NCBI GenBank assembly: GCA_963779755.1
Contig: CAVZZO010000001.1
Location: 1-64,000, forward strand
Length of the DNA stretch: 64,000 nt
Reading direction: 5' to 3'
Origin: an uncultured Gemmatimonadales bacterium
Lineage (GTDB): Bacteria > Gemmatimonadota > Gemmatimonadetes > Gemmatimonadales > GWC2-71-9
Shown here: piece by piece, positions 827-23,929 of the stretch
Layout of the letters: the number at the start of each line of letters is the position of its first letter
Position numbering within the stretch: the first letter of the stretch is position 1
The notes under the pieces: model-generated
The model's database searches: none
Told to the model about the DNA's origin: nothing
What the model saw: the letters and a program-made list of their open reading frames with translations, nothing else
Position numbers and translations under genes: made by a program

Positions 827-3739
<2,913 letters not shown>

Positions 3740-4533: not shown

Positions 4534-4556
4534 TAGCCTGGGCCCCCCTTTGATGA

Positions 4557-6745: not shown

Positions 6746-6747
6746 CC

Positions 6748-7350: not shown

Positions 7351-7380
7351 ATTGGGAATAATCATTCCCAAATTGGGAAT
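7343..7380. promoter_or_regulatory. Two tandem palindromes ATTCCCA-N3-TGGGAAT over the MNT start (probable autorepression operators)
   Basis: attcccatattgggaat at 7343-7359 and attcccaaattgggaat at 7364-7380. Confidence 0.65.
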
Positions 7381-7550
7381 GCGCAAGAGCCGCGGTAAGG
7401 CGGTAGCGGCGGTACGAGCGGGAACCCCGATCCATGCTATCGCCGGCCTGCAATACAGATCTCAGACGGCCCCATATTACAGCCAGGCTGAGACACGCCC
7501 CTCCCATCCTCCAATCCCCAATCCTGAATCCTGAATCTCACTCTCTGGCA

Positions 7551-7626
7551 TTGCCACCTCCCTTACTTCGGCATATATTCGGTTCCTGTGAAGCCGAATA
7601 CACACCGAAGCAAGGCAGGTGCCCAT
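7551..7626 (+). promoter_or_regulatory. Orphan copy A of the mutagenesis-operon promoter/operator
   Basis: TTGCCA-N17-TATATT; TTCGG-N6-TTCGG-N11-CCGAA-N6-CCGAA; ends GCAAGGCAGGTGCCCAT like copies B and C, but no gene follows. Confidence 0.6.
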
Positions 7627-7645
7627 ATTTTCCTGGGTCCTTCCG

Positions 7646-8855: not shown

Positions 8856-8879
8856 GTCGAACTCCGGACAGGCTGAAAA

Positions 8880-8943
8880 TATGGCTTAACCGCTAAACCA
8901 TACTTTGGCGATATTAGTAGTATGGTTTATTGTCTAAGCCATA
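8880..8943. promoter_or_regulatory. Two palindromic operators TATGGYTTA-N5-TAARCCATA upstream of fic
   Basis: tatggctta-accgc-taaaccata (8880-8902) and tatggttta-ttgtc-taagccata (8921-8943). Confidence 0.65.
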
Positions 8944-9024
8944 CTTTGACCGGCTTCATAGTAGGGCTTCCTGCCATCCATCGGAAGGGCCTTTTTCCCC
9001 AATCCTGAATCTTCCTCCCCCGCA

Positions 9025-9098
9025 TTGACGCCCGTCTCGTCTTCGGCATATATTCGGTTCCCGGAAGCCGAATATCCACCGAAGCAAGGCAGGTGCCC
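9025..9098 (+). promoter_or_regulatory. Copy B of the mutagenesis-operon promoter/operator
   Basis: TTGACG-N18-TATATT; TTCGG-N6-TTCGG-N10-CCGAA-N6-CCGAA. Confidence 0.65.
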
Positions 9099-9254
9099 AT
9101 GCCCCCCGCTCCCTCCCCCTCCCCCCGCCAGCCCGCTGAGAGCAATCCGCTAACCTACTACCGGATAAAGGTTTGTCCCGAGTGCTCCGGGCCGGTGGTG
9201 CGGAACTCCGGGTGCATGCACTGCCTGCAGTGCGGGTGGGGGAGATGCGAATGA
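9099..9254 (+). CDS. 51-aa Zn-ribbon protein (copy 1, no insertion)
   Basis: Manual translation: MPPAPSPSPRQPAESNPLTYYRIKVCPECSGPVVRNSGCMHCLQCGWGRCE; ATGA overlap with the next ORF; below the ORF-track size cutoff. Confidence 0.7.
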   Translation: MPPAPSPSPRQPAESNPLTYYRIKVCPECSGPVVRNSGCMHCLQCGWGRCE

Positions 9255-9685
9255 AGGCGGTACGGCGGTACGGCGGTACGGCGGTAGGGGAGCCGAAGGA
9301 AGACTCCCGGGTCGCGGTACGGCGGTACGGCGGTACGGCGGTAGGGGAGCCGAAGGAAGACTCCCGGGCCGCCAGCCAGCCGGACCTGGACCCGGAAAGC
9401 TCGATGGGGCGCTCCCGGAAGGCGGGAGGGTGGGAGGGCGGGAAGGCGGGAAGCGAGGCGCCAGTCGAGCGCCGAGGTCATCCTTCGCTCCGGGCCGCCA
9501 GCCAGCCTGAACCTACTCCGGGCCTCCGCGCAGGGCGCTCCCTGCCGGTCCTGGAAGATGGGAAAGGCGCGCTGGCGGTTCGGGGCGAAGCGCCTCCCGC
9601 CTTCCCGCCTTCCCGCCCTCCCGCCGCTGTTCCTACCGCCGTACCGCCCTACCGCCGTACCGCCGTTGTTCCTCCCGCCTTCCCG
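9251..9685 (+). pseudogene. Truncated duplicate of the radical SAM 5' repeat-rich leader
   Basis: Near-identical to 14485-14690 (AVRRYGGTAVGEPKEDSR x2, GRSLPVLEDGKGALAVR), with extra repeat tracts. Confidence 0.7.
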
Positions 9686-10269: not shown

Positions 10270-10343
10270 TCCTGACGAGGAGTCCAACAATAACTGGAGC
10301 AGGTTTCGGGGGTCAGCTCAAGTTCGCGCGTGATCAACGAACC

Positions 10344-10760
10344 TTAGCTAGTATATGAACTCAAGAAGACGAAATTCTTGTCGAATACCACATTTATGCC
10401 CCATTCCCCTGCCAGCTCCAGTGGATCGCGCACTACGTATACAGTGTTAACTTTGATTACGTAGACATGACGCCCACCAGGTGGTGGCGCGGTGCCTACT
10501 GCTTGTTGGTAGGCAGCCGCGGCCTGGACACATACCGCCTCATCGGTCACGTAAGAGATCTTGTTGGCTTGGGTGGAGGGGATTCCATACCTCTGACGCC
10601 GCGCAACGTACTCGGAGTCCGAGCTCGTAGCCACCAGAGTGAGCCACGCGATATCATTAGCGCTCACGTCGTCCGCTGGGAGACAAGTCTGAGCATGTAG
10701 GGGGACCGCAAGTCCACTCAGCACGGCGCACATGATTACGCCGATGAGTCCTTTTGCCAT
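10344..10760 (-). CDS. Small secreted protein with two Cys in the mature part (possible immunity/partner)
   Basis: GGAGG RBS; signal peptide MAKGLIGVIMCAVLSGLAVPLHA-Q; starts 17 nt after the stop of the 491-aa gene. Confidence 0.65.
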   Translation of the reverse strand: MAKGLIGVIMCAVLSGLAVPLHAQTCLPADDVSANDIAWLTLVATSSDSEYVARRQRYGIPSTQANKISYVTDEAVCVQAAAAYQQAVGTAPPPGGRHVYVIKVNTVYVVRDPLELAGEWGINVVFDKNFVFLSSYTS

Positions 10761-10777
10761 ACCACCTCCAGAAGTAG

Positions 10778-12253
10778 TTACCACGTGCAGCTCGAAGTGG
10801 CGTGATCCCAGACGTTAGGGTTGGCAAGTTGCTCGCTGAGCGGGGTGCCGGGATCAAGCCGCCAAACGCGCGTTTTATCAAAGGTGTACATGGGGAAGAG
10901 CGGATTACCGAGAGCCCCCAGGTCGTTGTTCAAACGGCTCAAAGCGACCCAATCGTTCCCGCTCCCACCCCCATTCGGAAGGGGCTCAAAGTCTGTAGGA
11001 ATGATTGGCCTCGTGCCACACACCGTGATCGAATCACCATCGAAATACGGATGAGTATGGTACACAGCTATCAGGATCTCTCCAGGGTTACCGGCCGGCC
11101 GTAAGTATTCTCGACCGCAGTTATCGGCTGTAATCAGACCGCCGCTGGGATCAAACCGGATATTGCCGGTTACGGTATCTCGCCATACATTGCCACCCTG
11201 TTCGATGCGATTCCCGATGTTCGGATCACCTGGGTTAGAGTTTGCCATAGCCTGCTGTAAGAGGCTCCGGAAGGCGGGGTTGTCGAGGAGGGAGTCCCCT
11301 GTGATACAGTCAGATGTAACGCTCAAGTCATCGTAGGCAACGTAGTCATTGTCAGCGGGAACAAGTTGAATCCGGACGATTCCTACCCCACTCACTGTTA
11401 CCAAATCAGCCGTATTTACACCTGGTTTACGGTCATAGGGGACGTTCACCGATCCCACGACCGAGCCCGCCGCATTATAGGCAACAACCTGATTGCCTCT
11501 AAAATCAGAATCATAGACGGTGATCGTAACACTCCTCAGGGGAGCGGAAGACAGAATGTCAATCGGGTGCGACGGTCCGGTAAATGAGTCACTTTGAAAG
11601 CCGCCAAATGGTCCGCCGGTAACATAGGGAGAAATGTCGATCGTAATATTGCACCACGTTCCGGGCGCAGGAATAGCACAACTCCCGGGTTGCGCTGACG
11701 ACATCTGCACCCTTGGAGTCTTGATCCATGGGGTGTTGGCACTAACGATCTCGCCACCGAAAAGGTGTTGTGATAGCCGAAACGCACCGTCAGGTACGGT
11801 CGTCAGCGGCCGATTCATCTCATACCTTAGCGTAACTGATTCAGTGGTCGCGAATCGGAACACCGTCTCACCATTTAGCAATGAGCCAATGGAATATTCG
11901 TGCTCCCCAAGAGCGGAACTGACGTAGATGCGCAATGATGCGACCGCCTGCTGGAATGGCGGGTCAGCCTGCATTTGAAGAACAACGCTGTCCCCCCTCC
12001 TTCCGGCGATGGTAAACTCGGCTAGTGCCGTTAACGCAGTTGCCGAGTCCCCATTGATACCAACCCTGAATGGCCCACCGTCCTCAGCAATCAAACAGAC
12101 CATTGAACATGAGGGTCCCGCTGCCTCAGGCGAACCGGAGGTTGGTCCTGAGACAGTCTCGGTGTCTGAAAGGCACGCGGCCAGAGTAAGGGTCGTTAGC
12201 ATTGCCAATGAGGCTGTTGAAACACTCCATTGAGCCAAGGGGAATGCTTTCAT
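10778..12253 (-). CDS. Lower-GC lipoprotein with C-terminal JAB/MPN-like domain
   Basis: LTLAAC lipobox; C-terminal IEQGG..IAVYHTHP..SGND pattern. Confidence 0.6.
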   Translation of the reverse strand: MKAFPLAQWSVSTASLAMLTTLTLAACLSDTETVSGPTSGSPEAAGPSCSMVCLIAEDGGPFRVGINGDSATALTALAEFTIAGRRGDSVVLQMQADPPFQQAVASLRIYVSSALGEHEYSIGSLLNGETVFRFATTESVTLRYEMNRPLTTVPDGAFRLSQHLFGGEIVSANTPWIKTPRVQMSSAQPGSCAIPAPGTWCNITIDISPYVTGGPFGGFQSDSFTGPSHPIDILSSAPLRSVTITVYDSDFRGNQVVAYNAAGSVVGSVNVPYDRKPGVNTADLVTVSGVGIVRIQLVPADNDYVAYDDLSVTSDCITGDSLLDNPAFRSLLQQAMANSNPGDPNIGNRIEQGGNVWRDTVTGNIRFDPSGGLITADNCGREYLRPAGNPGEILIAVYHTHPYFDGDSITVCGTRPIIPTDFEPLPNGGGSGNDWVALSRLNNDLGALGNPLFPMYTFDKTRVWRLDPGTPLSEQLANPNVWDHATSSCTW

Positions 12254-12387
12254 TTGGCCTATCCCTATCCCTTGTCAAGAGACGTGCCATGTGCGAGGAA
12301 CAGCCACCAGGCAGTGGCGCGGCAGTGGCTGCTGCTACCTGTCCTTCATCGGATTACGAGGCGCGGAAGTCGCTGACCCAGACAGTC

Positions 12388-13466
12388 TGATATCAAGTTT
12401 GTAGTGCAACACTGAGCCTCATCGTGCATAGCATTCCTCCGGGGTGCGGTAGAGGAGGCGCTTCCGGGGTCGGCGGTTGAGTTTGCGGGCGAGGCGATCA
12501 CACGCGGCCTGGGTGAGGTGCGCCATAGAGTGGCCTTTCGGGAGGTACTGCCGCAGCAGGCCGTTGGTGTTCTCGTTGGTTCCGCGCTCCCAGCTGTGGT
12601 GCGGCGTGGCGAAGTAGAAGCGCGTGGCGGTCTCCCGTTCGATCGCCGCGTAGTCATGGAACTCGGTGCCGTTGTCCACGGTGATGGTGCGCACCGGGCG
12701 AGCTTCCCGATGAATCAGCTGCGTCGCCCGGCGCGTGACGGCGGTGGTCGTCCGCTGGTGGAGTTGGCCGAGCATCAGATAGCCGGTCTTCCGTTCCACC
12801 AGCGTCAGCACGCAGGGGCCGGCCTGTCCCGCGCCGAGGACGGTGTCGCCTTCCCAGTGACCGACCTGGCTGCGGCCTTCGATGATCGCAGGCCGCTCCG
12901 TGATCATCCGCTTCCCGGCCAGGCGGCCCCGGCTGTCGTAGCGCCCGTACCGTTTGCGGCGCTGCTTGCGGGCGCCGCGGAGGTGCTGGTAGAGCGTGCC
13001 GCCGTCCGCGCGGTCCGCCCAGACGTACCGATAGATCGTCTCGTGACTGATGGCGAGGTGTCCGTCCGCGGCGAGGCGGCCGGCGATCTGTTCGGGGCTC
13101 CAGTCCTCGCGCACCAGGCGTTCCACCTCCGCCCAATCCGTGGCGGTGAACCGGGTGTTGCGGCGCGAGTGGCTCCGCCGGCCCCGCGCGTACCAGTCGG
13201 CGAGCTGGGGGCGGTAGCCCCCGTCGTGGTGGGTGCGGTTGCGCCGGACCTCGCGGCCGATGGTGCTGCGGTGGCGACCGAGGAGGCGCGCGATGGCTGC
13301 CGCCGTCAGCCCCTGTCGGCGAAGCAGGCCGAGGGTGTACCGTTCAGCGGCGGTGATCTGGCGGTAGTTCATGGTCGGCTTCCTTGTCTTGGCGGACAGA
13401 GAAGTCTACTAGCTGTCAGATCACCGCTTTCGTCGCCTTCCGTTGTTGCACTTAGTATATGAATCC
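12388..13466 (-). mobile_element. IS30-family insertion sequence
   Basis: Imperfect terminal IRs sharing AGTGCAACA/TGTTGCACT flank the transposase. Confidence 0.85.
12419..13372 (-). CDS. IS30 transposase
   Basis: WSPEQI, ISHETIY, GHWEGDTV, TVDNGTEF, WERGTNENTNGLLRQY, LNRRPRK. Confidence 0.95.
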   Translation of the reverse strand: MNYRQITAAERYTLGLLRRQGLTAAAIARLLGRHRSTIGREVRRNRTHHDGGYRPQLADWYARGRRSHSRRNTRFTATDWAEVERLVREDWSPEQIAGRLAADGHLAISHETIYRYVWADRADGGTLYQHLRGARKQRRKRYGRYDSRGRLAGKRMITERPAIIEGRSQVGHWEGDTVLGAGQAGPCVLTLVERKTGYLMLGQLHQRTTTAVTRRATQLIHREARPVRTITVDNGTEFHDYAAIERETATRFYFATPHHSWERGTNENTNGLLRQYLPKGHSMAHLTQAACDRLARKLNRRPRKRLLYRTPEECYAR

Positions 13467-13857
13467 GCGCAGCCTAAGAAGGCAGGGGTTGGCACTCAAG
13501 GGCTGGTTTGCGACACCGAAGGACCGATTTGCGACATAATGAGAACCGGAGTTAATAATGCCGCAGAAAGCTCTCCTAGTGTCCGTGCCGCGACACATTA
13601 AGCGACCAACATGACTCAGTTGACTGTATTCGGAGGAGAACTGCGGATTCCGCCGTAAACCGTCCTCAAGAGAAAGGTCTCAATGTTCGGGGGACTAGTC
13701 ATGAGGTCGCAACCACAGAGAACTGTGGCTCCTCTGCTAAGCGAAGCCCGTCATTCATTACCCAGCTCGCCCACTGGGATTCGCCGAGGCGAGAGCGACC
13801 CTAGTCAAGACTCCAAGGGTACTTGATGGTGGCCGTCGGCCGGATTTCAAGATGCGG

Positions 13858-14165
13858 TCAATCTGCCGCCGGCTTACCGGCCGCTGCGGCTACCCGTACC
13901 GCCCCCAGCGCTCGCAGCGTCGGGAGTATCTCGATCTCCCACTCTCCTTGCCCCCGCTGTTCGTAGCGTTCTTGGACCTCATCCCACTCTGCCACGTCCT
14001 GCCGCTCCACGTCTTCCAACCGGTTGGCCTCTTTCCCGATGTGCTGAATCCACGAGGGGCTGACGTGACGACGGCCAAGGAGCCCAGTCGTCTTGGCGTC
14101 GCAGGGTCGTCCATTGGGGCCCAGGCTCTTGGACTCCGGGTGTCTGGCATACTCACGTACAACCT
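13858..14165 (-). pseudogene. Gene fragment truncated at promoter copy C
   Basis: ..EYARHPESKSLGPNGRPCDAKTTGLLGRRHV..HIGKEANRLE.. looks protein-like but has no own start; resembles the C-terminus of mobile-element PolB-like proteins (recall only). Confidence 0.4.
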
Positions 14166-14178
14166 CCCCTCCCCCGCA

Positions 14179-14251
14179 TTGACGCCCGTCTCTACTTCGG
14201 CATATATTCGGTTCTCGAAGCCGAATATCAACCGAAGCAAGGCAGGTGCCC
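14179..14251 (+). promoter_or_regulatory. Copy C: promoter/operator of the intact mutagenesis operon
   Basis: TTGACG-N18-TATATT; TTCGG-N6-TTCGG-N9-CCGAA-N6-CCGAA overlapping the -10 and start region. Confidence 0.7.
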
Positions 14252-14488
14252 ATGCCCCCCGCTCCCTCCCCCTCCCCCCGCCAGCCCGCTGACCGCCCGA
14301 GTGGGCGGAATGGGCAGAGTGGGCAGAATGGGCTGACGAAAGCCCACCAGATCCGTCACAGGTCGCCGGCGGAGACCAACCACCTAACCTACCACCTGAT
14401 AAGAGTTTGTCCCGAGTGCTCCGGGCCGGTGGTGCGGAACTCCGGCTGCATGCACTGCCTGCAGTGTGGATGGGGGAGATGCGAATGA
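14252..14488 (+). CDS. 78-aa Zn-ribbon protein (copy 2, with a 27-aa in-frame insertion)
   Basis: CPEC-x9-CMHCLQC-x4-C; ATGA coupling to the radical SAM start at 14485. Confidence 0.7.
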   Translation: MPPAPSPSPRQPADRPSGRNGQSGQNGLTKAHQIRHRSPAETNHLTYHLIRVCPECSGPVVRNSGCMHCLQCGWGRCE

Positions 14489-15894
14489 AGGCGGTACGGC
14501 GGTACGGCGGTACGGCGGTAGGGGAGCCGAAGGAAGACTCCCGGGTCGCGGTACGGCGGTACGGCGGTACGGCGGTAGGGGAGCCGAAGGAAGACTCCCG
14601 GGCCGCCAGCCAGCCTGAACCCGATCCGGGTCTCCGCGCAGGGCGCTCCCTGCCGGTCCTGGAAGACGGGAAAGGCGCGCTGGCGGTTCGGAGCGCTTCC
14701 TCGACCCTCTCGACCCCCTCGACCCCCTCGACCCGCCGAAGGGCACTGGGCGAGCAGCTCATGCTCCAACCCGAGTGGACCCCATCAGCCCGCGCCCCCT
14801 GGATCACCCTGGACACGCGCCAGAGAGGCACCCGCTTCCACCAGCTGCCGGTCAGGTCGGTGCTGAACCCGCCCTCCACTACCGGCATGGGCTTCTGGTC
14901 GCTCAATCCCTATGTGGGGTGTGAGTTCGGGTGCTCGTATTGCTATGCGCGGGATACGCATCGGTGGACTGTCGAACGGGCGCATGAGAAGATGCGGCCG
15001 GTCGCAACTGGGGTCGAGGGGGTCGAGGGGGTCGAGGGAGTCGAGCGGATTGCAGCCGAAGGCTCCGAAATGGTCGAGAAGCTCGAGGGGTGCTCGACCT
15101 CGACCCCCTTGACACCCTTGACCCCCTCGACCGAGCTCTTCGAGCACGAGATCCTCGTAAAGACAGGAGCCCCTGAAGCACTACGCCGCTCGCTCGACCC
15201 AGCGAAGCTGGGCGAGGCGAGCCTCGTCATCGGCACCGCCACCGATGCCTATCAGCCCGCCGAACGAAAGTTCCGCATCACTCGGCAAATTTTGGAGGCG
15301 CTGACGCATTACCGCGGGCTCTCCATCGGGCTCATCACCAAGTCGCCCCTGATCACGAGAGACCTGGATCTGCTGCAGCAGCTGTCGCAGATCCATGAGG
15401 TGAGCGTCAATATCTCGATCGCCACGCTGGACGCGAAGCTGGCCCGCCGTCTGGAGCGCCGCTCGCCGGTGCCGCGGGCCCGGCTCAAAGCACTCAAGAA
15501 GCTCACCGACGGCGGCATCCACGCCGGCGTCCTCATCGCGCCCATCCTCCCCGGCATCACCGACAGCACCCCCGCCCTGCGCGCCCTGATGCGCTCGGCG
15601 AAGGCGGCCGGCGCGTGCTACGTAGCGGGCTCGCCACTCCGGCTGGGGGAATCGATCCGGCAGATGTTCTTCCCCATGCTGGAACGGGAGTTCCCCCACC
15701 TGGTGGAGCGCTACCGGCGCCACTTCGCGGGGAGAGACTACGTGGCGAAGTCGTACCAGCAGGCGCTGATGGAAAGGCTGCGGGGGCTGCAGGAGGAACT
15801 GGGCTTCCCCGTGGCGGAGAGCCGACGCAGGCGGGAACAACTCGAGGGCCGCCGCCGGCGGGAAACCAGAGATCACCAACACAGCATGATCTAG
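14485..15894 (+). CDS. Radical SAM protein, SplB-like/Rv2578c-type (DNA-repair associated), with repeat-derived insertions
   Basis: SLNPYVGCEFGCSYCYAR (CxxxCxxC), IGTATDAYQPAE, ITKSPLITRDLD, APILPGITD. Confidence 0.9.
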   Translation: MKAVRRYGGTAVGEPKEDSRVAVRRYGGTAVGEPKEDSRAASQPEPDPGLRAGRSLPVLEDGKGALAVRSASSTLSTPSTPSTRRRALGEQLMLQPEWTPSARAPWITLDTRQRGTRFHQLPVRSVLNPPSTTGMGFWSLNPYVGCEFGCSYCYARDTHRWTVERAHEKMRPVATGVEGVEGVEGVERIAAEGSEMVEKLEGCSTSTPLTPLTPSTELFEHEILVKTGAPEALRRSLDPAKLGEASLVIGTATDAYQPAERKFRITRQILEALTHYRGLSIGLITKSPLITRDLDLLQQLSQIHEVSVNISIATLDAKLARRLERRSPVPRARLKALKKLTDGGIHAGVLIAPILPGITDSTPALRALMRSAKAAGACYVAGSPLRLGESIRQMFFPMLEREFPHLVERYRRHFAGRDYVAKSYQQALMERLRGLQEELGFPVAESRRRREQLEGRRRRETRDHQHSMI

Positions 15895-15896
15895 TC

Positions 15897-16397
15897 AACT
15901 GCAAACCGCGAAGACGCAAAGAACCGCAAAGAGCGCGAAGAAAGACTTTTTTTGAAAACAGCAAAAAGAAATCGCAGTTCTTCGCGTGCCTTCGCGTCTT
16001 CGCGGTTAGCAGTTCCGATCGCATAGAATGCTCCGATCTGTCCTTAACCGGGACTACGTAACACCGTCATATCAGCAGGCGCTGATGGAAAAGGCTGCGG
16101 GCGCTGCAGGAAGAACTGGGCTTCCCCGTGGCGGAGAGCCGACGCCGCCGGGAGCAGCTGGAAGGCCGCCGGCGACGAGAAACCAGAGATCACCAGACCT
16201 GTATGATTTAGTAACTGCTTAACCGCGAAGACGCGAAGGACGCTAAGGAACGCGAAGAAAGGCCTTTGTAAACTGCAAACCGCGAAGACGCGAAGGACGC
16301 AAAGAGCCGCGAAGAAAAAGCTTTGTGAAAAAAACACCAAAAAACAGCTGTTCTTTGCGACCTTCGCGCCCCTTCGCGTCTTCGCGGTTAGGCAGTT
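15897..16397. repeat. Two ACCGCGAAGACGCGAAG-type hairpins flanking a duplicated gene junction
   Basis: AACTGC-N-ACCGCGAAGACGC..A-rich loop..CTTCGCGTCTTCGCGGTT-N-GCAGTT at 15897-16014 and 16213-16397. Confidence 0.85.
16028..16211 (+). pseudogene. Chimeric remnant: imuB start (MLRSVL) fused to a diverged copy of the radical SAM 3' end
   Basis: 16052-16211 parallels 15736-15894; 16028-16045 parallels 16411-16428. Confidence 0.8.
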
Positions 16398-16410
16398 CCG
16401 ATCTTATTGA

Positions 16411-17709
16411 ATGCTCAGATCTGTTCTCTTTATCGACCCGCCCGCGTTCTGCACCACCGTCGAGGAACTGGTGGCGCCGGCGCTGCGCGCCCGGCCCATC
16501 GTGGTCGCGCCGCCGGGGGCCGACCGCGCCCTCGTCCTGGCGCTCTCCGCCGAGGCGGAACGGGCGGGGATCACGCGGGGGATGGCGCTCAGGCAGGCCC
16601 GGAAACGCTGCCCCGACCTGGTGATCCTCCCGCCCAATCCCCGCCTCTACGCCCGCGCGTCCCGCGCGCTGCACCAGGTGCTGGCCCGCTATGCGCCCAT
16701 CATCGAGCCGCGCTGGTACGGCCACGCCTTCCTCGACCTCACCGGCACCGGCCGGCTCTTCGGCCCGGCGGTGGATGTGGCGGAGAGGATCCGGAGGGAG
16801 GCGGGCGAGAAGCTGCGGCTGCCGCTTTATGTAGGAGTTGCCGGGAATAAGCTCGTCAGTGAAGCATCGGTACGGGCGGTACGGCGGTACGGCGGTATGG
16901 CGGTAGCCGAGCGAACCTCGAGCTCCGGTTCCCCCTTCCCAACAGGGAAGGGGGACAGGGGGTTAGGTCGAGGAGGACGGCAGGACGGCAAGACGGCAGG
17001 ACGGCAGGAGCTGTTTGCGGTACCGAGTGGCGACGAGGCGCAGTTCCTCGCGCCGCACCCGACGCCGGTGCTTCCCGACGTGCCGGAAAAGCTCCGCATC
17101 CGCCTGGAGGAATACCAGCTCGACCTGATCGGCGAGATCGCATCACTCACCGAGCCGCAGATCGGGTCGGTGCTGGGAACGCCCGGCATCCGGCTGCTCT
17201 ACCACGCGCGCGGCATCGACCCTCGGCCGGTGCTGCCGCCGGCGGTCAAAGCCGAATTCCAGATCCAGCACACCCTGGCGACGGACACCAACGACCTGGG
17301 ACACCTGCACACGCTGCTCCGCCGGATGACCGAGCGGCTGGGCCGCCGGCTGCGCCGGCGCGGGCTCTCCGCCGGCCGGCTCAGTGTCACCGTCACCTGG
17401 AGCGACTACAAGGACGCGAGCCGGGGGGTCCCGCTGGCGCCCGCGATGCTGGATGTGGAACTGTGGAACGCCGCGCGACGCGCGTTCACCCTGGCCTGCG
17501 TGCGGCCCGTGTCGGTGCGGATGCTGGGGGTGAGGGTGGATCGGCTGACGGAGTCTGATGTGCAACTCGACCTCTGGCGCGATCGGGAAGAGGTCGAGGG
17601 GGTCGAGAAGGTCGAGAGGGTCGAGGTCGAAAAAACCCGGAGCCTCCAGCGCGCGGTGGACCGGATCCACCGCCGCTGGGGCGAGCGGAGCCTCCTGAGC
17701 CGGGTTTAA
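16411..17709 (+). CDS. imuB: Catalytically inactive Y-family polymerase (ImuB-like)
   Basis: DinB-like fold, but motif I reads FIDPPAF and the SxDE catalytic motif is replaced by WYGHAFLD; clamp motif QLDLW; upstream of dnaE2. Confidence 0.85.
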   Translation: MLRSVLFIDPPAFCTTVEELVAPALRARPIVVAPPGADRALVLALSAEAERAGITRGMALRQARKRCPDLVILPPNPRLYARASRALHQVLARYAPIIEPRWYGHAFLDLTGTGRLFGPAVDVAERIRREAGEKLRLPLYVGVAGNKLVSEASVRAVRRYGGMAVAERTSSSGSPFPTGKGDRGLGRGGRQDGKTAGRQELFAVPSGDEAQFLAPHPTPVLPDVPEKLRIRLEEYQLDLIGEIASLTEPQIGSVLGTPGIRLLYHARGIDPRPVLPPAVKAEFQIQHTLATDTNDLGHLHTLLRRMTERLGRRLRRRGLSAGRLSVTVTWSDYKDASRGVPLAPAMLDVELWNAARRAFTLACVRPVSVRMLGVRVDRLTESDVQLDLWRDREEVEGVEKVERVEVEKTRSLQRAVDRIHRRWGERSLLSRV

Positions 17710-17714
17710 CTCCG

Positions 17715-17960
17715 AACTGCTAACCGCGAAGGCGCGAAGGGCGCCAAGAGCCGCGAAGAAAAAGCTTTGTGAAAAAACAAAAAACAGCTGTTCTTTGCGT
17801 ACTTCGCGCCCCTTCCGTCTTCGCGGTGAAGCTGTTGCCCGATAACCGCGAAAACCCGAAGAGTGCGAAGGACGCCAAGAAATACATTTGTGAAAAACAA
17901 CAAAACAGCAGTTCTTCGCGTATCTTTGCGTCCCTTGGCGCCTTCGCGGTTAGCTGTTGC
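17715..17960. repeat. Two ACCGCGAAG-type hairpins between convergent genes
   Basis: Arms AACCGCGAAG.. / ..CTTCGCGGT at 17722-17828 and 17844-17951. Confidence 0.8.
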
Positions 17961-17962
17961 AG

Positions 17963-18937
17963 TTACCAGACCAGGACGATCTTGCCGAACCCCTCGTTCT
18001 TCTCCATGGCCTCATGAGCTCTTCGCAACTCCGTCATCGGAAAGACCGACCCCACCACTGGATGCAGCTTCCCGGCGACGAACAACGGGATCATCTCGTC
18101 CGCGAAGGTGATGCACAGGGGAATCCGCTCCTCCAGCCCCCGCGAGCGCATGACGGTGCCGATGATCTCCAGCCGCTTCTGCAGCACGGGCGCCAGGTCC
18201 AGCCCGTCCGCCTTCGCCCCCTGGAGGAACCCCAGCAGCACCAGCCGGCCCCGGGGCGCCAGGACAGCGAGGTTGTCGGCCAGCGCGGGGCCGCCCAGGG
18301 CGTCCACGATGACATCGACCGGGTCGCCCACGGCCTCGCGGAAGCTGCCCCCGACCCGGCTGGTATCAATGCCCACGTCGAGCCCCAGTTCGCGGCAGCG
18401 CTCCAGCTTGGAGGCGGTGCGCGAGGTGCCCAGCACCGTGGCGCCCTGGTGCTTCGCGATCTGGATGGCGGCGGTGCCGACCCCGCCGGTCACCGCATGC
18501 CAGAGGAGCCGCTCGCCCGATTGCAGCCGGGCACGGGTGACCAGCGCGTCGTACGCGGTGAGAAAGGCCTCGGGGATGGCGGCGGCCTCGGTGGCGTCGA
18601 GGCTCCGGGGCACGACGATGGTTTCATCTTCGTGGACCACGACATATTCGGCGTGGCCCCCGCCGCCCACCAGGCCCATGACCCGCTCGCCCTTCCGGCG
18701 GCGGATGGCGCCCCGGCCCACGGCATCCACTACCCCGGCGTATTCCAGCCCGGGGACGTCGGCTGGCCAGCCGGGAGGCGCCGGGTAATGGCCCTTCCGC
18801 TGGAGGATATCGGCCCGGTTCAGGCCGGCGGCCTGCACCCGCACCCGGATCTGCCCCGGCCCGGGTTCGGGGGTGGGGACTTCCTTGATCTCGATGACCT
18901 CCGGCCCACCCGGAGCGGTATAGATCGCGGCACGCAT
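17963..18937 (-). CDS. NAD(P)H-quinone oxidoreductase (zeta-crystallin/MDR family)
   Basis: AAGLNRADILQRKGHYP, PGLEYAG, AAIPEAFLTAY, GGVGTAAIQ, GKIVL. Confidence 0.9.
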   Translation of the reverse strand: MRAAIYTAPGGPEVIEIKEVPTPEPGPGQIRVRVQAAGLNRADILQRKGHYPAPPGWPADVPGLEYAGVVDAVGRGAIRRRKGERVMGLVGGGGHAEYVVVHEDETIVVPRSLDATEAAAIPEAFLTAYDALVTRARLQSGERLLWHAVTGGVGTAAIQIAKHQGATVLGTSRTASKLERCRELGLDVGIDTSRVGGSFREAVGDPVDVIVDALGGPALADNLAVLAPRGRLVLLGFLQGAKADGLDLAPVLQKRLEIIGTVMRSRGLEERIPLCITFADEMIPLFVAGKLHPVVGSVFPMTELRRAHEAMEKNEGFGKIVLVW

Positions 18938-18942
18938 AAGGA

Positions 18943-19240
18943 ACAAGCTAACCGCGAAGACGCGAAGGGCGCCAAGGAACGCGAAGAAGAGAATCTTTCG
19001 TAACTGCGACCGCGAAGACGCGAAGAGCGCGAAGGAACGCGAAGAAGAGAATCTTTCGCAACTGCGACCGCGAAGGCGCGAAGGGCGCCAAGGAACGCGA
19101 AGAAGAGAATCTCATTGTAACTGCGACCGTGAAGACGCGAAGAGCGTGAAGATCGCGAAGAACAACTTTGTGAAAAACAAAAAGAAATAGCAGTTCTTTG
19201 CGTGTCTTCGCGTCCTTTGCGTCTTCGCGGTTGCTGTTAA
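18943..19240. repeat. Tandem array of about 58-bp ACCGCGAAG units closed by an inverted arm
   Basis: Units ACCGCGAAGACGCGAAG..GGAACGCGAAGAAGAGAATCT..AACTGCG repeated 3 times plus a partial fourth, then ..CTTCGCGGTT. Confidence 0.85.
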
Positions 19241-19256
19241 CTGACGAGCCTTAGCC

Positions 19257-19793
19257 ATGATGACATACTGTGCAATCGCGCCGGGGCATCCCTATCACGG
19301 CCCCTATCACGATACCGAGTACGGCTTCCCGCTCACCGGCGACGCGGAGCTGTTCGAGCGGCTCATGCTGGAGGTGAACCAGGCAGGGCTATCCTGGCTC
19401 ACCATTCTCAAGAAGCGCGACGCCTTCCGCCGCGCCTACAGGAAGTTCGACCCAGCGGCGGTGGCCCGCTTCGGCGCGAAGGACCGGCGCCGGCTGCTGA
19501 TGGATGCCGGGATCATCCGCAACCGGCTCAAGATCGACGCCGCGATCCACAACGCGCAGGTGATCCTCGACCTGCGCGAGATCCACGGGACCTTCAAGGG
19601 CTGGCTCGACGCGCACCACCCGCGGCCGAAGGAGGAGTGGGTGAAACTGTTCAAGAAGACCTTTCGCTTCACCGGCGGGGAGATCGTGGGGGAGTTCCTG
19701 CTCAGCACCGGCTATCTCCCCGGAGCGCACGAGGAGTCGTGCCCGGTGTACCGCCGCGTGCTGCGTTCGAGGCCGCCCTGGACTCGTAAGTGA
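19257..19793 (+). CDS. tag: DNA-3-methyladenine glycosylase I
   Basis: YHDTEYG, LFERLMLEVNQAGLSWLTILKKR, IIRNRLKIDA, FRFTG. Confidence 0.92.
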   Translation: MMTYCAIAPGHPYHGPYHDTEYGFPLTGDAELFERLMLEVNQAGLSWLTILKKRDAFRRAYRKFDPAAVARFGAKDRRRLLMDAGIIRNRLKIDAAIHNAQVILDLREIHGTFKGWLDAHHPRPKEEWVKLFKKTFRFTGGEIVGEFLLSTGYLPGAHEESCPVYRRVLRSRPPWTRK

Positions 19794-19961
19794 AACCGCG
19801 AAGACGCTAAAAGACGCTAAGAAAATCAAGAAGTCGTTTACCGCGAAGACGCGAAGGGGCGCGAAGGGGCGCGAAGGGGCGCGAAGAAATACTTTGTTGA
19901 AAACAAGAAAAGAAGAAGCAGTTCTTTGCGTATCTTCGCATCCTTCGCGTCTTCGCGGTTG
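19793..19961. repeat. ACCGCGAAG-type hairpin directly before dnaE2
   Basis: AACCGCGAAGACGC..CTTCGCGTCTTCGCGGTT, with an internal (GCGAAGGGGC)n expansion. Confidence 0.8.
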
Positions 19962-19971
19962 ATAGAGATCC

Positions 19972-22900
19972 ATGTTTGTACACCTGCATTGTCACTCCCA
20001 CTTCTCCTTCGGGGCAGGGACGTCCAGCCCCGAGGCGCTGGTGGCGGCCGCCGCCGAGCGCGGGTTCACCGCCCTCGCCTGCACCGACACCAACGGCGTC
20101 TACGGCGCGGTGGAGTTCCAGCAAGCCGCCCTGGAGGCGGGGGTACGGCCGATCCTGGGCGCGCACCTGGAGCATGAGGGGCAGGAGTGTGTGGTGCTCG
20201 CGCTCGACGAGATCGGATGGGGGGCGTTGTGTCGTGCCGTTACGGGGATCCAGTGGGCCCAGGCAGGACGGCAGGTGGAACAGCAGGATCGAACCTTGGC
20301 GTCCGGTCCCCCCTTCCCAATAGGGAAGGGGGACAGGGGGTTAGGTCGGCGGGAAGGCGGGAAGGCTGGCAGGCGGGAGGTGGAACAGCCGGCTCCCTTC
20401 GCTCTTTCGGCCCAGATGGCGACCGATCGCGCCGGCTTGGCCGTGCTGTCGAGAGATATCTCCTTCCTCGAGCGGGTGGTGAAACTCTCGGGTCCCGACG
20501 GCATTTACGCCGAGCTGGTGCCGGGCAAGGAGCGCCACGCCGTGCTCGCCGCCGCTCGGCGGCTGGGGATTCCGGTGGTCGCCACCAATGCCGTGATGAT
20601 GGCGCATCCGGAGGAGTGGTCGAGGCATCGCCTTCTCCGCGCCATCTCATCCAATACCGCCGTTACCGCCGTTACCGCCGCTACCGCCCCGCGCGACGCC
20701 TGGTTGAGGCCCGAGCCCGACCTTGCACGATTCTTTCCTGACGCACCGGAAGCGCTGACGAATGCCGCGCGGATCGCCGACCGCTGCCGCTACCGCATCC
20801 CCATCGGCCGGATCGTGCCGCCCAGGCTGGCGGCGGACCAGGACGCGCACGCCCAGTTGCGCTCGCTCACCTACGAGGGAGCCCTCCGGCGTTACGGCAC
20901 CGTCGCCCCGCTGGTGCGCGACCGGATCGAGCACGAGCTGCGCATCATCGGCATGAAAGGCTTCGCCGATTACTTCCTGGTGGTGCGCGACATCATCCAG
21001 CACGGCCCCACCCACTGCGGCCGCGGCTCGGTGGCCAATTCGGTGGTCAGCTACTGCCTGGGCATCACCCATGTGGAGCCGCTGGGAGCGGGGCTCCTGT
21101 TCGAGCGGTTTCTCAATCCGGAACGCAAAGATCCGCCCGATATCGACCTCGATTTTCCCTGGGACGAGCGCGACAAGGTGCTGGCCTACGTGTTCCAGCG
21201 CTACCCCCGTCCCCGCGCGGCCATGGTGGCGAACCACAACTGCTTCCGGCTACGCGGCGCGCTGCGCGAGGTGGCCAAGGTGCACGGCCGGCCTCCGGGC
21301 GAGATCCGCGAGGTGACCCGCCGCATCCCCTGGTACAGCGACGACGAGTCGCTGGGCGACCTGCTCATGAAGCATCCCAACTACCGGGGGCTGGATCTGC
21401 CCGAGGTCTGGCGCGATCTGGCCAGGATGGCCGAGCCTCTGGTGGGGATCCCCCGGCACCTCTCACTCCATCCCGGCGGGGTGGTGATCGTCCCCGGCAC
21501 GCTCACCGATTACGTGCCGCTGGAGCCGGCGGTGAAGACGCTGGACGGGTTTCCTGACGTGACCGTGCCGGTGATCCAGTTCGAGAAGGATGGGGCGGAA
21601 GACGCCGGGCTGGTGAAGATCGATCTCCTGGGGAACCGCTCGCTGGCGGTGATCCGTGACGCGATCGCCATGGTGAAGGAGAACACCGGCAAGGAGATCG
21701 ACTACACCCGGGGTGACGCGGGCGACGATCCCGCCACCCGGGCGCTGTTCCGTCAGGGGAAGACCATGGGGGTGTTCTACACCGAGTCGCCGGCCTCGCG
21801 CCTGCTCTGCCAGAAGAGCAAGGCGGAGACGTTCGACCTCCTGGTGCTCAACACCAGCATCATCCGGCCGGCGTCCAACCGGTTCATCCGGGTCTATCTC
21901 GAGCGGCTGCACGGCTCTCCCTGGGAGCCGCTGGATCTCTGCCTGCGCGACGTGCTGAGCGACACCTTCGGCGTCATGGTCTATCAGGAGGACGTGGTGA
22001 ACGTCTGCGCCGTTTTCGCCGGCATGCCGCTCGCCACCGGCGACGGGCTGCGCAAGGCGCTCAGCAAGAAACGGCCGGTGAAGCAGCTCGCCGCCTATGC
22101 CGGGGAGTTCTTCGCCGGAGCGGAGGCGCTGGGCCGGAACCCGGAAACGGCGGCGAAGGTGTGGGAGATGATCATGTCCTTCGCCGGTTACAGCTTCTGC
22201 AAGGGGCACTCCTGTTCCTATATCCAGGTGGCGCAGCAGTCGTGCTATCTCCGGGCCAACCATCCCGCCGAGTTCTTCGCCGCCGTGCTGTCGAACGGGG
22301 GCGGGTTCTATCACCCCTTTGCCTATATCGCCGAGGCAATGCGGGAAGGAATCACCATCCTGCCGCCGGATGTGAATGAGAGCCAGGAGCGGTGCACCGG
22401 GCGGGGGCGTGAATTGCGGGTAGGGCTCCAGTTCGTGAAGGGGCTCGGTGCGGAGGCGAGGGAGCGGATTGTCGGAGGACGGCAGGACGGCCCTAAAGGA
22501 CTTCCTCGCGGCCTCATTCGTGGGCCGCTCGGTCGCCAGACGGCAGGACGGCAGGTAGGACGGCAAGACGGCAGGACGGTAAGACGGCAGGAGGAGCATC
22601 CCTATGCATCGCTTGCGGATTTCCGATCACGCACCAGGATAGCGGACGATGATCTCCGGATTCTGATCAAGGTGGGAGCGCTGGATTCCATCGCGAATGG
22701 GCTTACCCGCCCGATGATGCTCTGGGCGGTGGATTCTATCGGTGCAAAGAGTGACCAGGATGGGCAACTGTCGCTCGGCTCCGACCACTTGCCGCCCTGC
22801 CGTCCTGCCGCCTTGCCGCCTTTGAAAGAGTACACGGAGCCCCGCAAGCGCCGGGAACAATACGAGCTCCTGGAATTCAATACAGATGTACACCCCATGT

Positions 22901-23223
22901 CCCTCCACTCCGACACTATCCGTCGGCTGCGGCTGGTGAAGAGCAGCGACCTCTGCCGGCATGTGGGAGAGAGTGTCCTGGTGGCGGGGATGCTCACCAC
23001 GTCCAAGCCGGTCCATACCGTCAAGGACGAGCCGATGGAGTTTGCTACCTTCGACGACGGCCACGGGCTCATCGAGACGGTGCTCTTTCCCGGTGTCTAT
23101 CGCGCCCGCGGCCACGTACTGTTCGACCAGGGTCCGTTTCTGCTGCGGGGGAAGGTGGAGGAGGAGTTCGGGGCGGTGACGCTCACCGTGACGCACCTGG
23201 AGCGGCTGGAGCGAGTTACCTAA
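19972..23223 (+). CDS. dnaE2: Error-prone DNA polymerase III alpha (DnaE2) with repeat insertions
   Basis: PHP HLHCHS, CGRGS, PDIDLD, KIDLLGNR, FCKGH, C-terminal OB fold; located in a cassette with ImuB. Confidence 0.92.
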   Translation: MFVHLHCHSHFSFGAGTSSPEALVAAAAERGFTALACTDTNGVYGAVEFQQAALEAGVRPILGAHLEHEGQECVVLALDEIGWGALCRAVTGIQWAQAGRQVEQQDRTLASGPPFPIGKGDRGLGRREGGKAGRREVEQPAPFALSAQMATDRAGLAVLSRDISFLERVVKLSGPDGIYAELVPGKERHAVLAAARRLGIPVVATNAVMMAHPEEWSRHRLLRAISSNTAVTAVTAATAPRDAWLRPEPDLARFFPDAPEALTNAARIADRCRYRIPIGRIVPPRLAADQDAHAQLRSLTYEGALRRYGTVAPLVRDRIEHELRIIGMKGFADYFLVVRDIIQHGPTHCGRGSVANSVVSYCLGITHVEPLGAGLLFERFLNPERKDPPDIDLDFPWDERDKVLAYVFQRYPRPRAAMVANHNCFRLRGALREVAKVHGRPPGEIREVTRRIPWYSDDESLGDLLMKHPNYRGLDLPEVWRDLARMAEPLVGIPRHLSLHPGGVVIVPGTLTDYVPLEPAVKTLDGFPDVTVPVIQFEKDGAEDAGLVKIDLLGNRSLAVIRDAIAMVKENTGKEIDYTRGDAGDDPATRALFRQGKTMGVFYTESPASRLLCQKSKAETFDLLVLNTSIIRPASNRFIRVYLERLHGSPWEPLDLCLRDVLSDTFGVMVYQEDVVNVCAVFAGMPLATGDGLRKALSKKRPVKQLAAYAGEFFAGAEALGRNPETAAKVWEMIMSFAGYSFCKGHSCSYIQVAQQSCYLRANHPAEFFAAVLSNGGGFYHPFAYIAEAMREGITILPPDVNESQERCTGRGRELRVGLQFVKGLGAEARERIVGGRQDGPKGLPRGLIRGPLGRQTAGRQVGRQDGRTVRRQEEHPYASLADFRSRTRIADDDLRILIKVGALDSIANGLTRPMMLWAVDSIGAKSDQDGQLSLGSDHLPPCRPAALPPLKEYTEPRKRREQYELLEFNTDVHPMSLHSDTIRRLRLVKSSDLCRHVGESVLVAGMLTTSKPVHTVKDEPMEFATFDDGHGLIETVLFPGVYRARGHVLFDQGPFLLRGKVEEEFGAVTLTVTHLERLERVT

Positions 23224-23386
23224 CCCCCTGTCCCCCTTCCCAATTGGGAAGGGGGAATCGAGACCCGAGCCTCACTCAAAACCGGCGGCAGCTACTCGCG
23301 TAAGATGCCACGATGACAGCCTGACACAGCAAAGCCGAACCCCCAGTGCCCCCTTCCCCTTGGGGGAAGGGGGACGGGGGTTAGGT
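23219..23386. repeat. Two opposed CCCCCTTCCC-N4-GGGAAGGGGG-ACAGGGGGTTAGG elements; the first supplies the dnaE2 stop codon
   Basis: Same element as at 16931-16967 (imuB) and 20308-20345 (dnaE2). Confidence 0.8.
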
Positions 23387-23428
23387 CCCCGATTCCCGAT
23401 TCCAGATTCCTTCACAAAGGAGGCACCG

Positions 23429-23929
23429 ATGCCGTCACCCAAGGAGCAGTTCCTCACCGCCTACGAGAAGGAACACGCCACCACCATGAAGGTCCTGCGG
23501 GCATATCCCACGGACAAGCTCGATCTGCAGCCGCACAAGATGTGCAAGACGGCGCGTGATCTGGCGTGGGTCTTCGTGATGGAGCGAAAGCTGGGAACCG
23601 CGGTATGGCAGGATGCCTTTGCCGCCGCGCCGCCCTCGGGCAGCCCGTCGCCGGTGCCGCAGAACTGGGACGAGCTGCTGGCAGCCCTGGAGCAGGCGCA
23701 CCAGGAATTCGCCGAGCTGGTGCGCTCCACCCCGGACGAGAAGCTGGATCAGACGGTGCGGTTCTTTACCGGAGCCAAGACCATGGGCGATATCCCGCGC
23801 ATCCAGTGGGCCTGGTTCCTGCTCTGCGACCAGATTCACCACCGGGGGCAGTTCTCGATCTATCTGCGAATGGCGGACGGCAAGGTGCCGTCCATCTACG
23901 GGCCGAGCGCGGACGAGCCGTGGAGGTAA
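23429..23929 (+). CDS. DinB/YfiT-family (DinB_2) metal-binding four-helix protein
   Basis: AAGGAGG RBS; DQIHHRGQFSIYLR..VPSIYGPSADE. Confidence 0.85.
   Translation: MPSPKEQFLTAYEKEHATTMKVLRAYPTDKLDLQPHKMCKTARDLAWVFVMERKLGTAVWQDAFAAAPPSGSPSPVPQNWDELLAALEQAHQEFAELVRSTPDEKLDQTVRFFTGAKTMGDIPRIQWAWFLLCDQIHHRGQFSIYLRMADGKVPSIYGPSADEPWR

Follow-up and report, generated by a model that had tools for sequence, protein, structure and literature searches.

A free-standing zinc-ribbon microprotein paired with a SplB-like radical SAM enzyme in a candidate SOS-like gene cluster of Gemmatimonadales

We analyzed a stretch of 64,000 nucleotides (nt), referred to here as the window, from an uncultured Gemmatimonadales bacterium (lineage GWC2-71-9; assembly GCA_963779755.1, contig CAVZZO010000001.1, positions 1 to 64,000 of the forward strand). 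It carries a gene cluster headed by a small open reading frame (ORF) for a zinc (Zn)-ribbon microprotein, which is followed directly by the gene of a SplB-like radical S-adenosylmethionine (SAM) enzyme. We find that the microprotein is a genuine, conserved gene paired with the radical SAM gene, and that the operator box in front of it also precedes genes of translesion synthesis. All of the genes that an initial annotation of the sequence had named (Zn-ribbon, radical SAM enzyme, dead polymerase, oxidoreductase, tag, dnaE2 and DinB_2) are present, and the features of the cluster are as follows.

14179..14251, plus strand: promoter/operator region, with a -35 element TTGACG at 14179-14184 and a -10 element TATATT at 14203-14208 inside box 1
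14196-14211, plus strand: box 1, TTCGGCATATATTCGG
14221-14236, plus strand: box 2, CCGAATATCAACCGAA
14240-14248, plus strand: Shine-Dalgarno-like sequence, AGGCAGGTG
14252..14488, plus strand: Zn-ribbon microprotein ORF of 78 amino acids (translation, NCBIfam, multi-genome conservation); the N-terminal 50 amino acids are Pro-rich, repeat-coded and predicted to be disordered, and the C-terminal 28 are the ribbon
14485..15894, plus strand: SplB-like radical SAM enzyme of the COG1533 type, related to Rv2578c/PA0069 (Pfam, NCBIfam)
15897..16410, plus strand: spacer with hairpin repeats and a recombination scar
16411..17709, plus strand: catalytically dead Y-family polymerase, here iPolY (IMS and IMS_C domains)
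17963..18946, minus strand: PIG3-family (PIG3-type) NAD(P)H quinone oxidoreductase (TIGR02824, 331 bits, above the cut-off)
19257..19793, plus strand: DNA-3-methyladenine glycosylase I (Tag)-like protein (Pfam/NCBIfam)
19972..23223, plus strand: error-prone polymerase of the C family, DnaE2-like, containing repeat insertions that keep the frame (NF004225)
23360..23929, plus strand: DinB/DinB_2 superfamily protein, distinct from the polymerase DinB (Pfam)

The microprotein ORF ends in VCPECSGPVVRNSGCMHCLQCGWGRCE, and its TGA overlaps the ATG of the radical SAM gene at 14485 (ATGA coupling). It had been described as a 51-amino-acid peptide, a length that is wrong for the 78-amino-acid ORF at 14252 and right only for a second copy at 9099-9254. 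We used the 51-amino-acid form as the query of an exhaustive phmmer search (E up to 1e-3), which returned 52 matches; 45 of these are proteins of 43-144 amino acids that carry the ribbon at their extreme C-terminus. A profile search found 188 microprotein clusters of 23-142 amino acids. The best 120 of the 188 are 44-125 amino acids long, are annotated only as 'hypothetical protein' or, by mis-transfer, as 'ribonucleoside-diphosphate reductase alpha chain', and contain no Pfam domain except for one borderline DUF7815 match. The organism names shown for the clusters are Gemmatimonadales, and the matches in the protein atlas are exclusively unnamed clusters of 43-53 amino acids.

An alignment of 61 family members, all stand-alone proteins of 43-81 amino acids with a variable, low-complexity N-terminal half, has nine invariant columns (C53, P54, C56, C66, C69, C72, G73, W74 and C77), which include all six Cys; an additional motif, NPLT-x3-IRVCPEC, is often kept before the ribbon. 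The pooled Nei-Gojobori ratio of non-synonymous to synonymous differences (pN/pS) across 78 ribbons is 0.30 in the ribbon frame, versus 1.56 in the overlapping frame of the radical SAM gene. In the AlphaFold2 model the last 28 amino acids form three strands with a predicted local distance difference test (pLDDT) score of about 83, and the N-terminal part is modelled without confidence. Searches of the ribbon against solved structures by sequence gave nothing significant (the best were YfgJ, E 0.023, and CUL9 Rcat, E 0.086), a fold search of the model gave only generic Zn ribbons (NudC, TFS4, PriA and ribosomal proteins, all with E > 0.4), and Pfam at E up to 10 gave weak IBR_2 and IBR_1 matches below the cut-off (E 0.0026-0.03), which are leads only. 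The microprotein ORF is a genuine gene.

In order to examine the neighborhoods of this gene, we scanned for relatives of the radical SAM enzyme with its alignment and kept 80 loci of 586 confirmed relatives, one genome per species. The labels of 77 loci read Gemmatimonadales, Gemmatimonadota or similar; the exceptions are L025, L034 and L035. A hidden Markov model (HMM) of the ribbon identifies a same-strand ribbon ORF upstream of the radical SAM gene in 76 of the 80 loci, which is 76 of 76 testable ones, as a contig end cuts the start of the radical SAM gene in the other four (L029, L045, L062 and L079). There is one ribbon ORF per locus. The expectation of the initial annotation that the Zn-ribbon ORF is an easily missed, conserved gene heading the cassette, and that it should co-occur upstream of the radical SAM gene in homologous loci, is borne out by these counts. 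The two genes share a 4-nt NTGA overlap in the radical SAM frame in 49 of the 76 loci and a 1-nt overlap in five, so that stop and start codons overlap in 54, and a short spacer separates them in 13.

The order that recurs across the loci is ribbon, radical SAM gene, iPolY, oxidoreductase on the opposite strand, tag and dnaE2. Of the 50 loci that extend at least 3 kb past the radical SAM gene, 44 have an iPolY gene within those 3 kb. Where at least 9.5 kb of downstream sequence is available (43 loci), iPolY is present in 40 (23 also with dnaE2, 17 without dnaE2 in reach); the remaining three, L043, L059 and L077, have neither iPolY nor dnaE2 within 9.5 kb and retain the ribbon-radical SAM pair. 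The distance from the radical SAM stop codon to the iPolY start, available for 60 loci, is at most 10 nt in 15, 11-150 nt in 12, 151-600 nt in 17 and over 600 nt in 16. In the window it is 516 nt, filled with hairpin repeats and a scar ORF (16028-16222) in which the first six iPolY codons (MLRSVL) are joined to a copy of the 3' end of the radical SAM gene (15736-15950 versus 16052-16267, 81-83% identity). This spacer is secondary, because the two genes abut in relatives.

The ribbon genes have a common layout in front of them: a TTGAC -35 element, box 1 TTCGGnnTATATTCGG containing the -10 element, about 10 nt, box 2, a Shine-Dalgarno sequence and the start codon. The consensus of box 2, CCGAAyAaAnnCCGAA, is box 1 inverted. 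At least one exact TTCGG-N6-TTCGG box occurs within 330 nt upstream of the ribbon in 76 of 76 loci; 46 of them have box 1, 63 have box 2 and 33 have both. Outside these promoters, the 1.1 Mb of locus sequence holds 28 additional exact boxes, at least 22 of which sit 2-40 nt before start codons. By gene, the further boxes precede iPolY (11), tag (5), dnaE2 (6) and the displaced radical SAM gene of L050 (1), and no ribbon ORF was found in any of the separately boxed iPolY, tag or dnaE2 units. Because the same box precedes these separately placed genes, we consider the ribbon, the polymerase, tag and dnaE2 to be one regulon; the shared box also upholds the earlier suggestion that the ribbon is co-regulated with translesion genes. 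An exact box found 21 nt before a DUF5131 gene in L048 (4685-5470) marks a possible additional member. In the window, no box within 2 mismatches lies at a sensible place before the local iPolY, tag or dnaE2 genes, whose spacers hold a different hairpin repeat.

The TTCGG box consists of a direct repeat with a period of 11 bp, and we liken it to the alphaproteobacterial LexA motif GTTC-N7-GTTC quoted in PMC8565304 (Sanchez-Osuna et al. 2021; this and the other articles cited below are drawn on in excerpt). The same article places SplB-type radical SAM genes under SOS control in several phyla, and the excerpt of PMC3381160 gives a chromatin immunoprecipitation site of Mycobacterium tuberculosis LexA at Rv2578c/Rv2579. 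The genes found behind the box would make it the operator of a candidate SOS-like regulon, the repressor of which is probably LexA. Divergent ORFs beside the iPolY boxes, checked for LexA, match no Pfam family. The operator could alternatively be read as an RNA hairpin, since the window copy folds with -19.6 kcal/mol; however, 30 of 76 loci lack box 1, and it is only box 2 that stands before iPolY, tag and dnaE2, so a DNA operator fits better.

The exact box is confined in the window to three promoter copies, two of which lie upstream of the cluster.

9014..9590, plus strand: partial second copy, comprising a promoter with both boxes (9042-9057, 9068-9083), a 51-amino-acid ribbon ORF (9099-9254) and the 5' end of the radical SAM gene
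7539..7625, plus strand: third copy, promoter only, with boxes at 7567-7582 and 7594-7609 and with ATA replacing ATG

A regular-expression scan of all six frames found the ribbon twice, in the 14252 ORF and in the second copy. The duplication (9014-9590 versus 14168-14695) has 93-99% DNA identity and spans the promoter, the ribbon ORF and the repeat-coded 5' end of the radical SAM gene; the second copy then continues in frame into an IS3-family OrfB fragment, up to 10243. In 27 ribbon codons the two copies have three synonymous and no non-synonymous differences. The initial annotation had pointed to six Cys kept in two diverged copies. The Cys are indeed present in both, but the copies are not diverged; as they are recent duplicates their shared Cys say little, and it is the other genomes that provide the evidence of conservation. 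The extra operator/promoter copies may titrate the repressor or drive stray transcription. The promoter-only copy extends into the 3' end of a Fic_N gene on the minus strand.

The resemblance of the ribbon to the C-terminus of class II ribonucleotide reductases (RNRs), previously noted, is confirmed by several searches. The microprotein matches positions 712-758 of the 759 in NF006417 (B12-dependent RNR) with E 1.6e-6, and the tails of two RNRs (P0157 and P0172) are 49-59% identical to it over 27-39 amino acids, with the same Cys spacing, C-x2-C-x9-C-x2-C-x2-C-x4-C. The long matches of the exhaustive phmmer search were four RNRs and one RNR fragment, together with three low-complexity proteins. 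According to the excerpted text of Loderer et al. 2017 (PMC5704485), turnover mediated by the NrdJd tail requires all six Cys; in their model Cys 1, 2, 4 and 5 bind zinc, Cys 3 and 6 are the terminal redox pair, and the natural reductant of the tail is not known. Its sequence makes the microprotein a free-standing version of the six-Cys array in which class II RNRs end; zinc binding and a redox pair may be ascribed to it by analogy.

The radical SAM enzyme matches PF04055 (Radical_SAM) with 51.6 bits, above the cut-off of 29.5, and contains the CX3CX2C motif at residues 146-153, where CEFGCSYC is invariant in 120 aligned sequences. No Cys of this alignment is invariant or nearly so except C146, C150 and C153, and no conserved hydrogen-donor Cys was found outside the Fe-S triad across the 120 sequences. 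The scores against NF038135 and NF033668 (the Rv2578c/PA0069 families) are 222 bits versus 430 and 213 versus 360, both below the cut-off, and each match is split into two stretches by a repeat-coded insertion; such insertions make up the N-terminal ~95 amino acids and residues ~183-210. Judged by these scores, the enzyme is of a subfamily related to Rv2578c/PA0069 and is not an equivalog. With 15.1 bits against a cut-off of 400 it falls outside TIGR04070 (spore photoproduct lyase). Pfam gives PF04055 only, with no SPASM, twitch or peptide-recognition domain, and no solved structure is related to the enzyme by sequence. Its model is a radical SAM barrel, the fold matches of which include spore photoproduct lyase 4FHC (TM 0.46, E 2.3e-4). 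With 4639 matches in the radical SAM search, this family is far broader than that of the microprotein. A Q[LIF]xLL motif occurs at the N-terminus of 68 of the 120 relatives, about 30-45 amino acids before the core, in 29 of them as QLDLL; the window enzyme has a weaker EQLMLQ (14740-14760, residues ~87-92). We take this motif to resemble the beta-clamp-binding motif.

The polymerase that follows has lost its catalytic residues: DPP replaces DMD and YGHAFLD replaces the catalytic D-E, and both replacements are kept in all 54 homologues. It carries the clamp motif QLDLW, of the QL[DE]LW form usual among the homologues. Only about 43 amino acids follow this motif in the window protein, which ends 9 amino acids past the RecA-NT-like LQRAVDRIHRRWG and has no ImuB-C domain. 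Most of the 54 homologues have, after a variable linker, an LQxAxDRIxxR[YW]G block near the C-terminus, which by eye we presume to resemble the RecA N-terminus. The earlier designation of this protein as an inactive ImuB with QLDLW is therefore apt as regards the lost catalytic residues and the clamp motif, but on sequence grounds it is not a canonical ImuB, with no ImuB-C and a tail of only ~43 amino acids. The DnaE2-like protein matches NF004225 over its full length with 588 bits, below the cut-off of 939; the DnaE1 model NF004226 gives the same score, with its best stretch confined to residues 188-840. As had been noted before, no imuA is recognizable: ImuA, RecA and LexA families were not found with Pfam and NCBIfam among the 58 window ORFs scanned. 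A gene of ~270 amino acids between tag and dnaE2 in related loci was considered as ImuA and rejected, since its sequence motifs are those of an alpha/beta hydrolase. The locus had been presented as an ImuA-less mutasome variant; it is ImuA-less within the window but not a new variant, as the type is already described in the excerpts of Timinskas and Venclovas 2019 (PMC6511836) and 2026 (PMC12926913), where an inactive PolY with a RecA-NT motif acts with DnaE2 and RecA is proposed to replace ImuA.

We conclude with high confidence that the microprotein is a functional gene tied to the radical SAM enzyme within a damage regulon. Because it is never found beside the separately boxed polymerase genes, we read the ribbon as a partner of the radical SAM enzyme and not as a mutasome subunit. 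The best explanation of the region as a whole is that it is the Gemmatimonadales form of an SOS-like damage cluster in which the microprotein serves the radical SAM enzyme as redox partner; we hold it tentatively, with belief and doubt nearly balanced. The redox-shuttle role, taken on its own and drawn from the RNR analogy, seems possible, although we lean towards doubting it.

The cluster could then work as follows. A repressor, most likely LexA, would occupy the TTCGG-N6-TTCGG boxes, one over the -10 element and one just downstream. On its release the first transcript would give the microprotein and, via the overlapping stop and start codons, a fixed proportion of radical SAM enzyme, and in many genomes the dead Y-family polymerase would come next on the same transcript. 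By analogy with the RNR tail, Cys 1, 2, 4 and 5 of the microprotein would hold zinc and Cys 3 and 6 would be the reactive pair. The microprotein would dock on the radical SAM enzyme, which has no conserved Cys beyond its three Fe-S ligands, and would supply the hydrogen atom or the reducing equivalents with which a radical reversal of DNA lesions is completed or reset. Lesions that are not reversed could be bypassed by the co-regulated dead-PolY/DnaE2 mutasome, presumably assisted by RecA. The PIG3-family NADPH quinone oxidoreductase is a candidate electron source for the thiol/redox proteins of the cluster.

Several observations weigh against this explanation. No lexA or recA was found in the window or beside a box across the 80 loci, and the identification of the repressor draws on box architecture and target genes. 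For none of the named families does the radical SAM enzyme reach the curated cut-off, and its fold matches spore photoproduct lyase no better than lipoyl synthase and others, so that neither result points to a substrate. The named members of the microprotein family are all Gemmatimonadales, in contrast to the wide radical SAM family; if the enzymes of other phyla have no ribbon, the enzyme can work alone. The radical SAM gene is more than 300 nt from the ribbon in 9 of the 76 loci, with DinB_2 or other genes in between, and in L050 the two are 4.3 kb apart, each with its own box. According to the excerpt of PMC5704485, the NrdJd cysteine-rich domain (CRD) expressed separately failed to restore activity driven by tris(2-carboxyethyl)phosphine (TCEP) in trans. 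Finally, no clean natural fusion of ribbon and radical SAM enzyme was found. Eight profile-search matches in longer proteins were considered as fusions and rejected: two are RNRs, four are frameshifted or read-through calls across ribbon, radical SAM gene and iPolY, one is a PLD-like upstream ORF reading through the operator (it contains FGLYSG), and P0291 is a similar read-through. A complex prediction of radical SAM residues 85-468 with the 4Fe-4S cluster, Zn and microprotein residues 40-78, run without controls, scored 0.19 against a mark of 0.32 and counts neither for nor against the pairing.

A bolder form of the redox-partner explanation is that the radical SAM lesion lyase has outsourced its reactive Cys to a detachable, RNR-derived microprotein and, tethered to the clamp by the QLDLL-type motif, forms with the mutasome a single 'reverse or bypass' module at stalled forks. 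We consider this improbable in its entirety. If true, it would be the first protein-radical redox shuttle common to ribonucleotide reduction and DNA repair.

It is also conceivable, if unlikely, that the microprotein binds nucleic acids, recognizes lesions or acts as a small regulator of the damage response, in which case the ribbon would be structural and not redox-active. Zn ribbons that bind DNA or RNA are common, and the fold search came closest to Zn ribbons of generic type (none significant, at E > 0.4). The ribbon is also always the first gene after the operator. However, the homology is specifically to a redox tail of RNR, six and not four Cys are invariant, and the conserved part comprises just 28 residues with few basic positions.

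We regard as decidedly unlikely the proposal that the microprotein serves the ImuA-less mutasome as an accessory subunit or as a regulator, binding iPolY or DnaE2 in place of ImuA or ImuB-C. The shared box places ribbon, iPolY, tag and dnaE2 in one regulon, in 27 of 60 loci no more than 150 nt separate the radical SAM stop from the iPolY start, so that one transcript may carry all three, and the system has neither ImuA nor ImuB-C, which leaves room for a small subunit. Yet the separately boxed iPolY and dnaE2 units have no ribbon and each locus has a single ribbon ORF, the ribbon remains with the radical SAM gene where iPolY is not nearby, the ribbon is unlike ImuA or ImuB-C, and the published ImuA-less iPolY-DnaE2 systems are explained with RecA and do without such a subunit. 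The initial annotation had favored a role in translesion synthesis, as accessory subunit or regulator; the co-regulation with translesion genes stands, but nothing here shows such a role, and the ribbon tracks the radical SAM enzyme.

Homology to the NrdJ tail also suggests a damage-induced tail that acts in trans on the class II RNR of the cell and raises the supply of deoxynucleoside triphosphates, and the excerpt of PMC5704485 describes a naturally split NrdJa+b with the CRD on a separate gene. This seems highly unlikely, as the microprotein corresponds to only the last ~28 of the 150-220 amino acids of a CRD (PMC5704485), it is translationally coupled to the radical SAM gene in 54 of 76 loci, and Pfam and NCBIfam reveal no RNR gene among the window ORFs scanned. 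A small Cys-rich ORF right before a radical SAM gene is in turn the usual layout of ribosomally synthesized and post-translationally modified peptides (RiPPs), and the maturases SkfB, SuiB and ChlB are listed among many radical SAM matches of the fold search. Nevertheless, a RiPP-like precursor modified by the adjacent enzyme is very hard to credit: the enzyme shows only a Radical_SAM domain, without a SPASM or peptide-recognition domain, a conserved C-terminal 'core' behind a variable N-terminal 'leader' is the reverse of most RiPPs, no conserved protease or exporter occurs in the cluster across related loci, and the cluster is a DNA-repair regulon. That the ORF is a mere upstream frame that sets radical SAM translation and encodes a functionless peptide is scarcely credible, for the stop-start overlap (54 of 76 loci) and the variable, low-complexity N-terminal half that would suit it are countered by strong purifying selection (nine invariant residues, pN/pS 0.30) and by homology to a protein module that has a function.

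Other features of the window concern its repeats and neighboring genes. The window is GC-rich (about 0.54-0.71 per 2-kb segment), and tandem repeats of 8-9 nt are abundant across it, partly inside genes. A hairpin repeat of ~110-130 nt with arms AACCGCGAAGRCGCGAAGG / CCTTCGCGTCTTCGCGGTT (15897-19960; minimum free energy -68 kcal/mol, z -9.3) occupies every intergenic spacer of the window cassette. Its 16-nt core has 16 matches in the window, all within 15906-19958, versus 0.28 expected. The positions that it holds in the window carry TTCGG boxes in related loci. In-frame insertions of hairpin or octamer repeats occur in the genes of the radical SAM enzyme (15010-15132), iPolY (16868-17009) and dnaE2 (20287-20378) and leave the reading frames unbroken. 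A 62-nt core shared with these insertions also precedes the DinB_2 gene (23327-23388), and repeat-coded peptides of similar kind are present in relatives from other metagenome-assembled genomes. These insertions recall the palindromic elements inside Rickettsia genes.

The family-model match of the Tag-like protein is confined to the first ~110 of its 178 residues. In related loci the protein is conserved along its length (284-318 bits), so the remainder looks like a lineage-specific C-terminal half. The position of the PIG3-family oxidoreductase between iPolY and tag and its opposite orientation are kept across the order in related loci. Genes similar to DinB_2/mycothiol-S-transferase occupy three sites across genomes: between ribbon and radical SAM gene, between radical SAM gene and polymerase, and after dnaE2 (L013, L016, L023, L049, L050, L029, L048, L057, L007 and L041; 23360-23929 in the window). 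Positions 1-14000 are an island-like stretch with lower GC in parts, encoding an AAA_23/RecF-like ATPase, a nucleotidyltransferase, Fic_N and transposases of IS3 and IS30, next to several ORFs that match no family.

These results define an unannotated microprotein family of 188 clusters and a candidate SOS box for Gemmatimonadales, and they provide evidence that a single regulon unites the published ImuA-less dead-PolY/DnaE2 system with genes of direct reversal and base excision. SplB-like (COG1533) radical SAM enzymes belong to SOS regulons of many phyla, and a coupled partner offers a testable hypothesis for both substrate and reductant. Full-text literature searches gave no description of such a microprotein, and the literature on LexA and SOS in Gemmatimonadetes, judged by its listing and by passages of one article, contained no definition of an SOS box.

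The cluster can be compared with several known systems. The canonical cassette is imuA-imuB-dnaE2. Like it, the window cluster combines a dead Y-family protein with a DnaE2-like polymerase under probable damage control; it differs in having no recognizable ImuA and no ImuB-C, and its genes are interrupted by the opposite-strand oxidoreductase and tag. It is closer to the iPolY-DnaE2-RecA systems of the Streptomyces coelicolor DinB2 type (PMC6511836 and PMC12926913, in excerpt), which likewise have a dead, near-core PolY with a clamp motif, no ImuB-C, DnaE2 nearby (DnaE2-like in the window) and no imuA (in our case, none among the 58 window ORFs scanned). The RecA-NT motif of these systems has a presumed counterpart in the C-terminal block of the window polymerase. 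In the window, by contrast, the polymerase follows a Zn-ribbon/radical SAM pair and shares an operator with it; the term 'radical SAM' is absent from the main texts of both articles.

Cys140 of spore photoproduct lyase is a hydrogen donor. The radical SAM enzyme of the window shares the CX3CX2C core with this lyase (PDB 4FHC), whose Cys140 is a subject of study according to PDB entry titles, whereas the window family has no conserved Cys beyond the Fe-S triad. Earlier work connects SplB-like radical SAM proteins (COG1533) with LexA boxes or with stand-alone ImuB-C (Aravind et al. 2013, PMC3765255; PMC8565304; both in excerpt). These SOS-regulated proteins belong to the same broad family and are similarly tied to SOS and mutagenic polymerase modules, and the main texts of the two articles, as searched, mention no upstream Zn-ribbon partner. 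The microprotein, finally, resembles the CRD of NrdJ, in which six Cys likewise stand at the extreme C-terminus as C-x2-C-x9-C-x2-C-x2-C-x4/5-C (the spacing of Stackebrandtia nassauensis NrdJd follows from residue numbers in the excerpt of PMC5704485). It differs in being a free-standing protein of 43-81 amino acids without an RNR catalytic domain and without the other 120-190 amino acids of the CRD (150-220 in all; PMC5704485), and its neighbor is a radical SAM gene and not an RNR gene. SOS-regulated SplB-like radical SAM enzymes, ImuA-less dead-PolY/DnaE2 systems and the NrdJ six-Cys array are thus of known kinds; what is new is the family of free-standing ribbons, the obligatory pairing of this family with the radical SAM enzyme, and the candidate operator.

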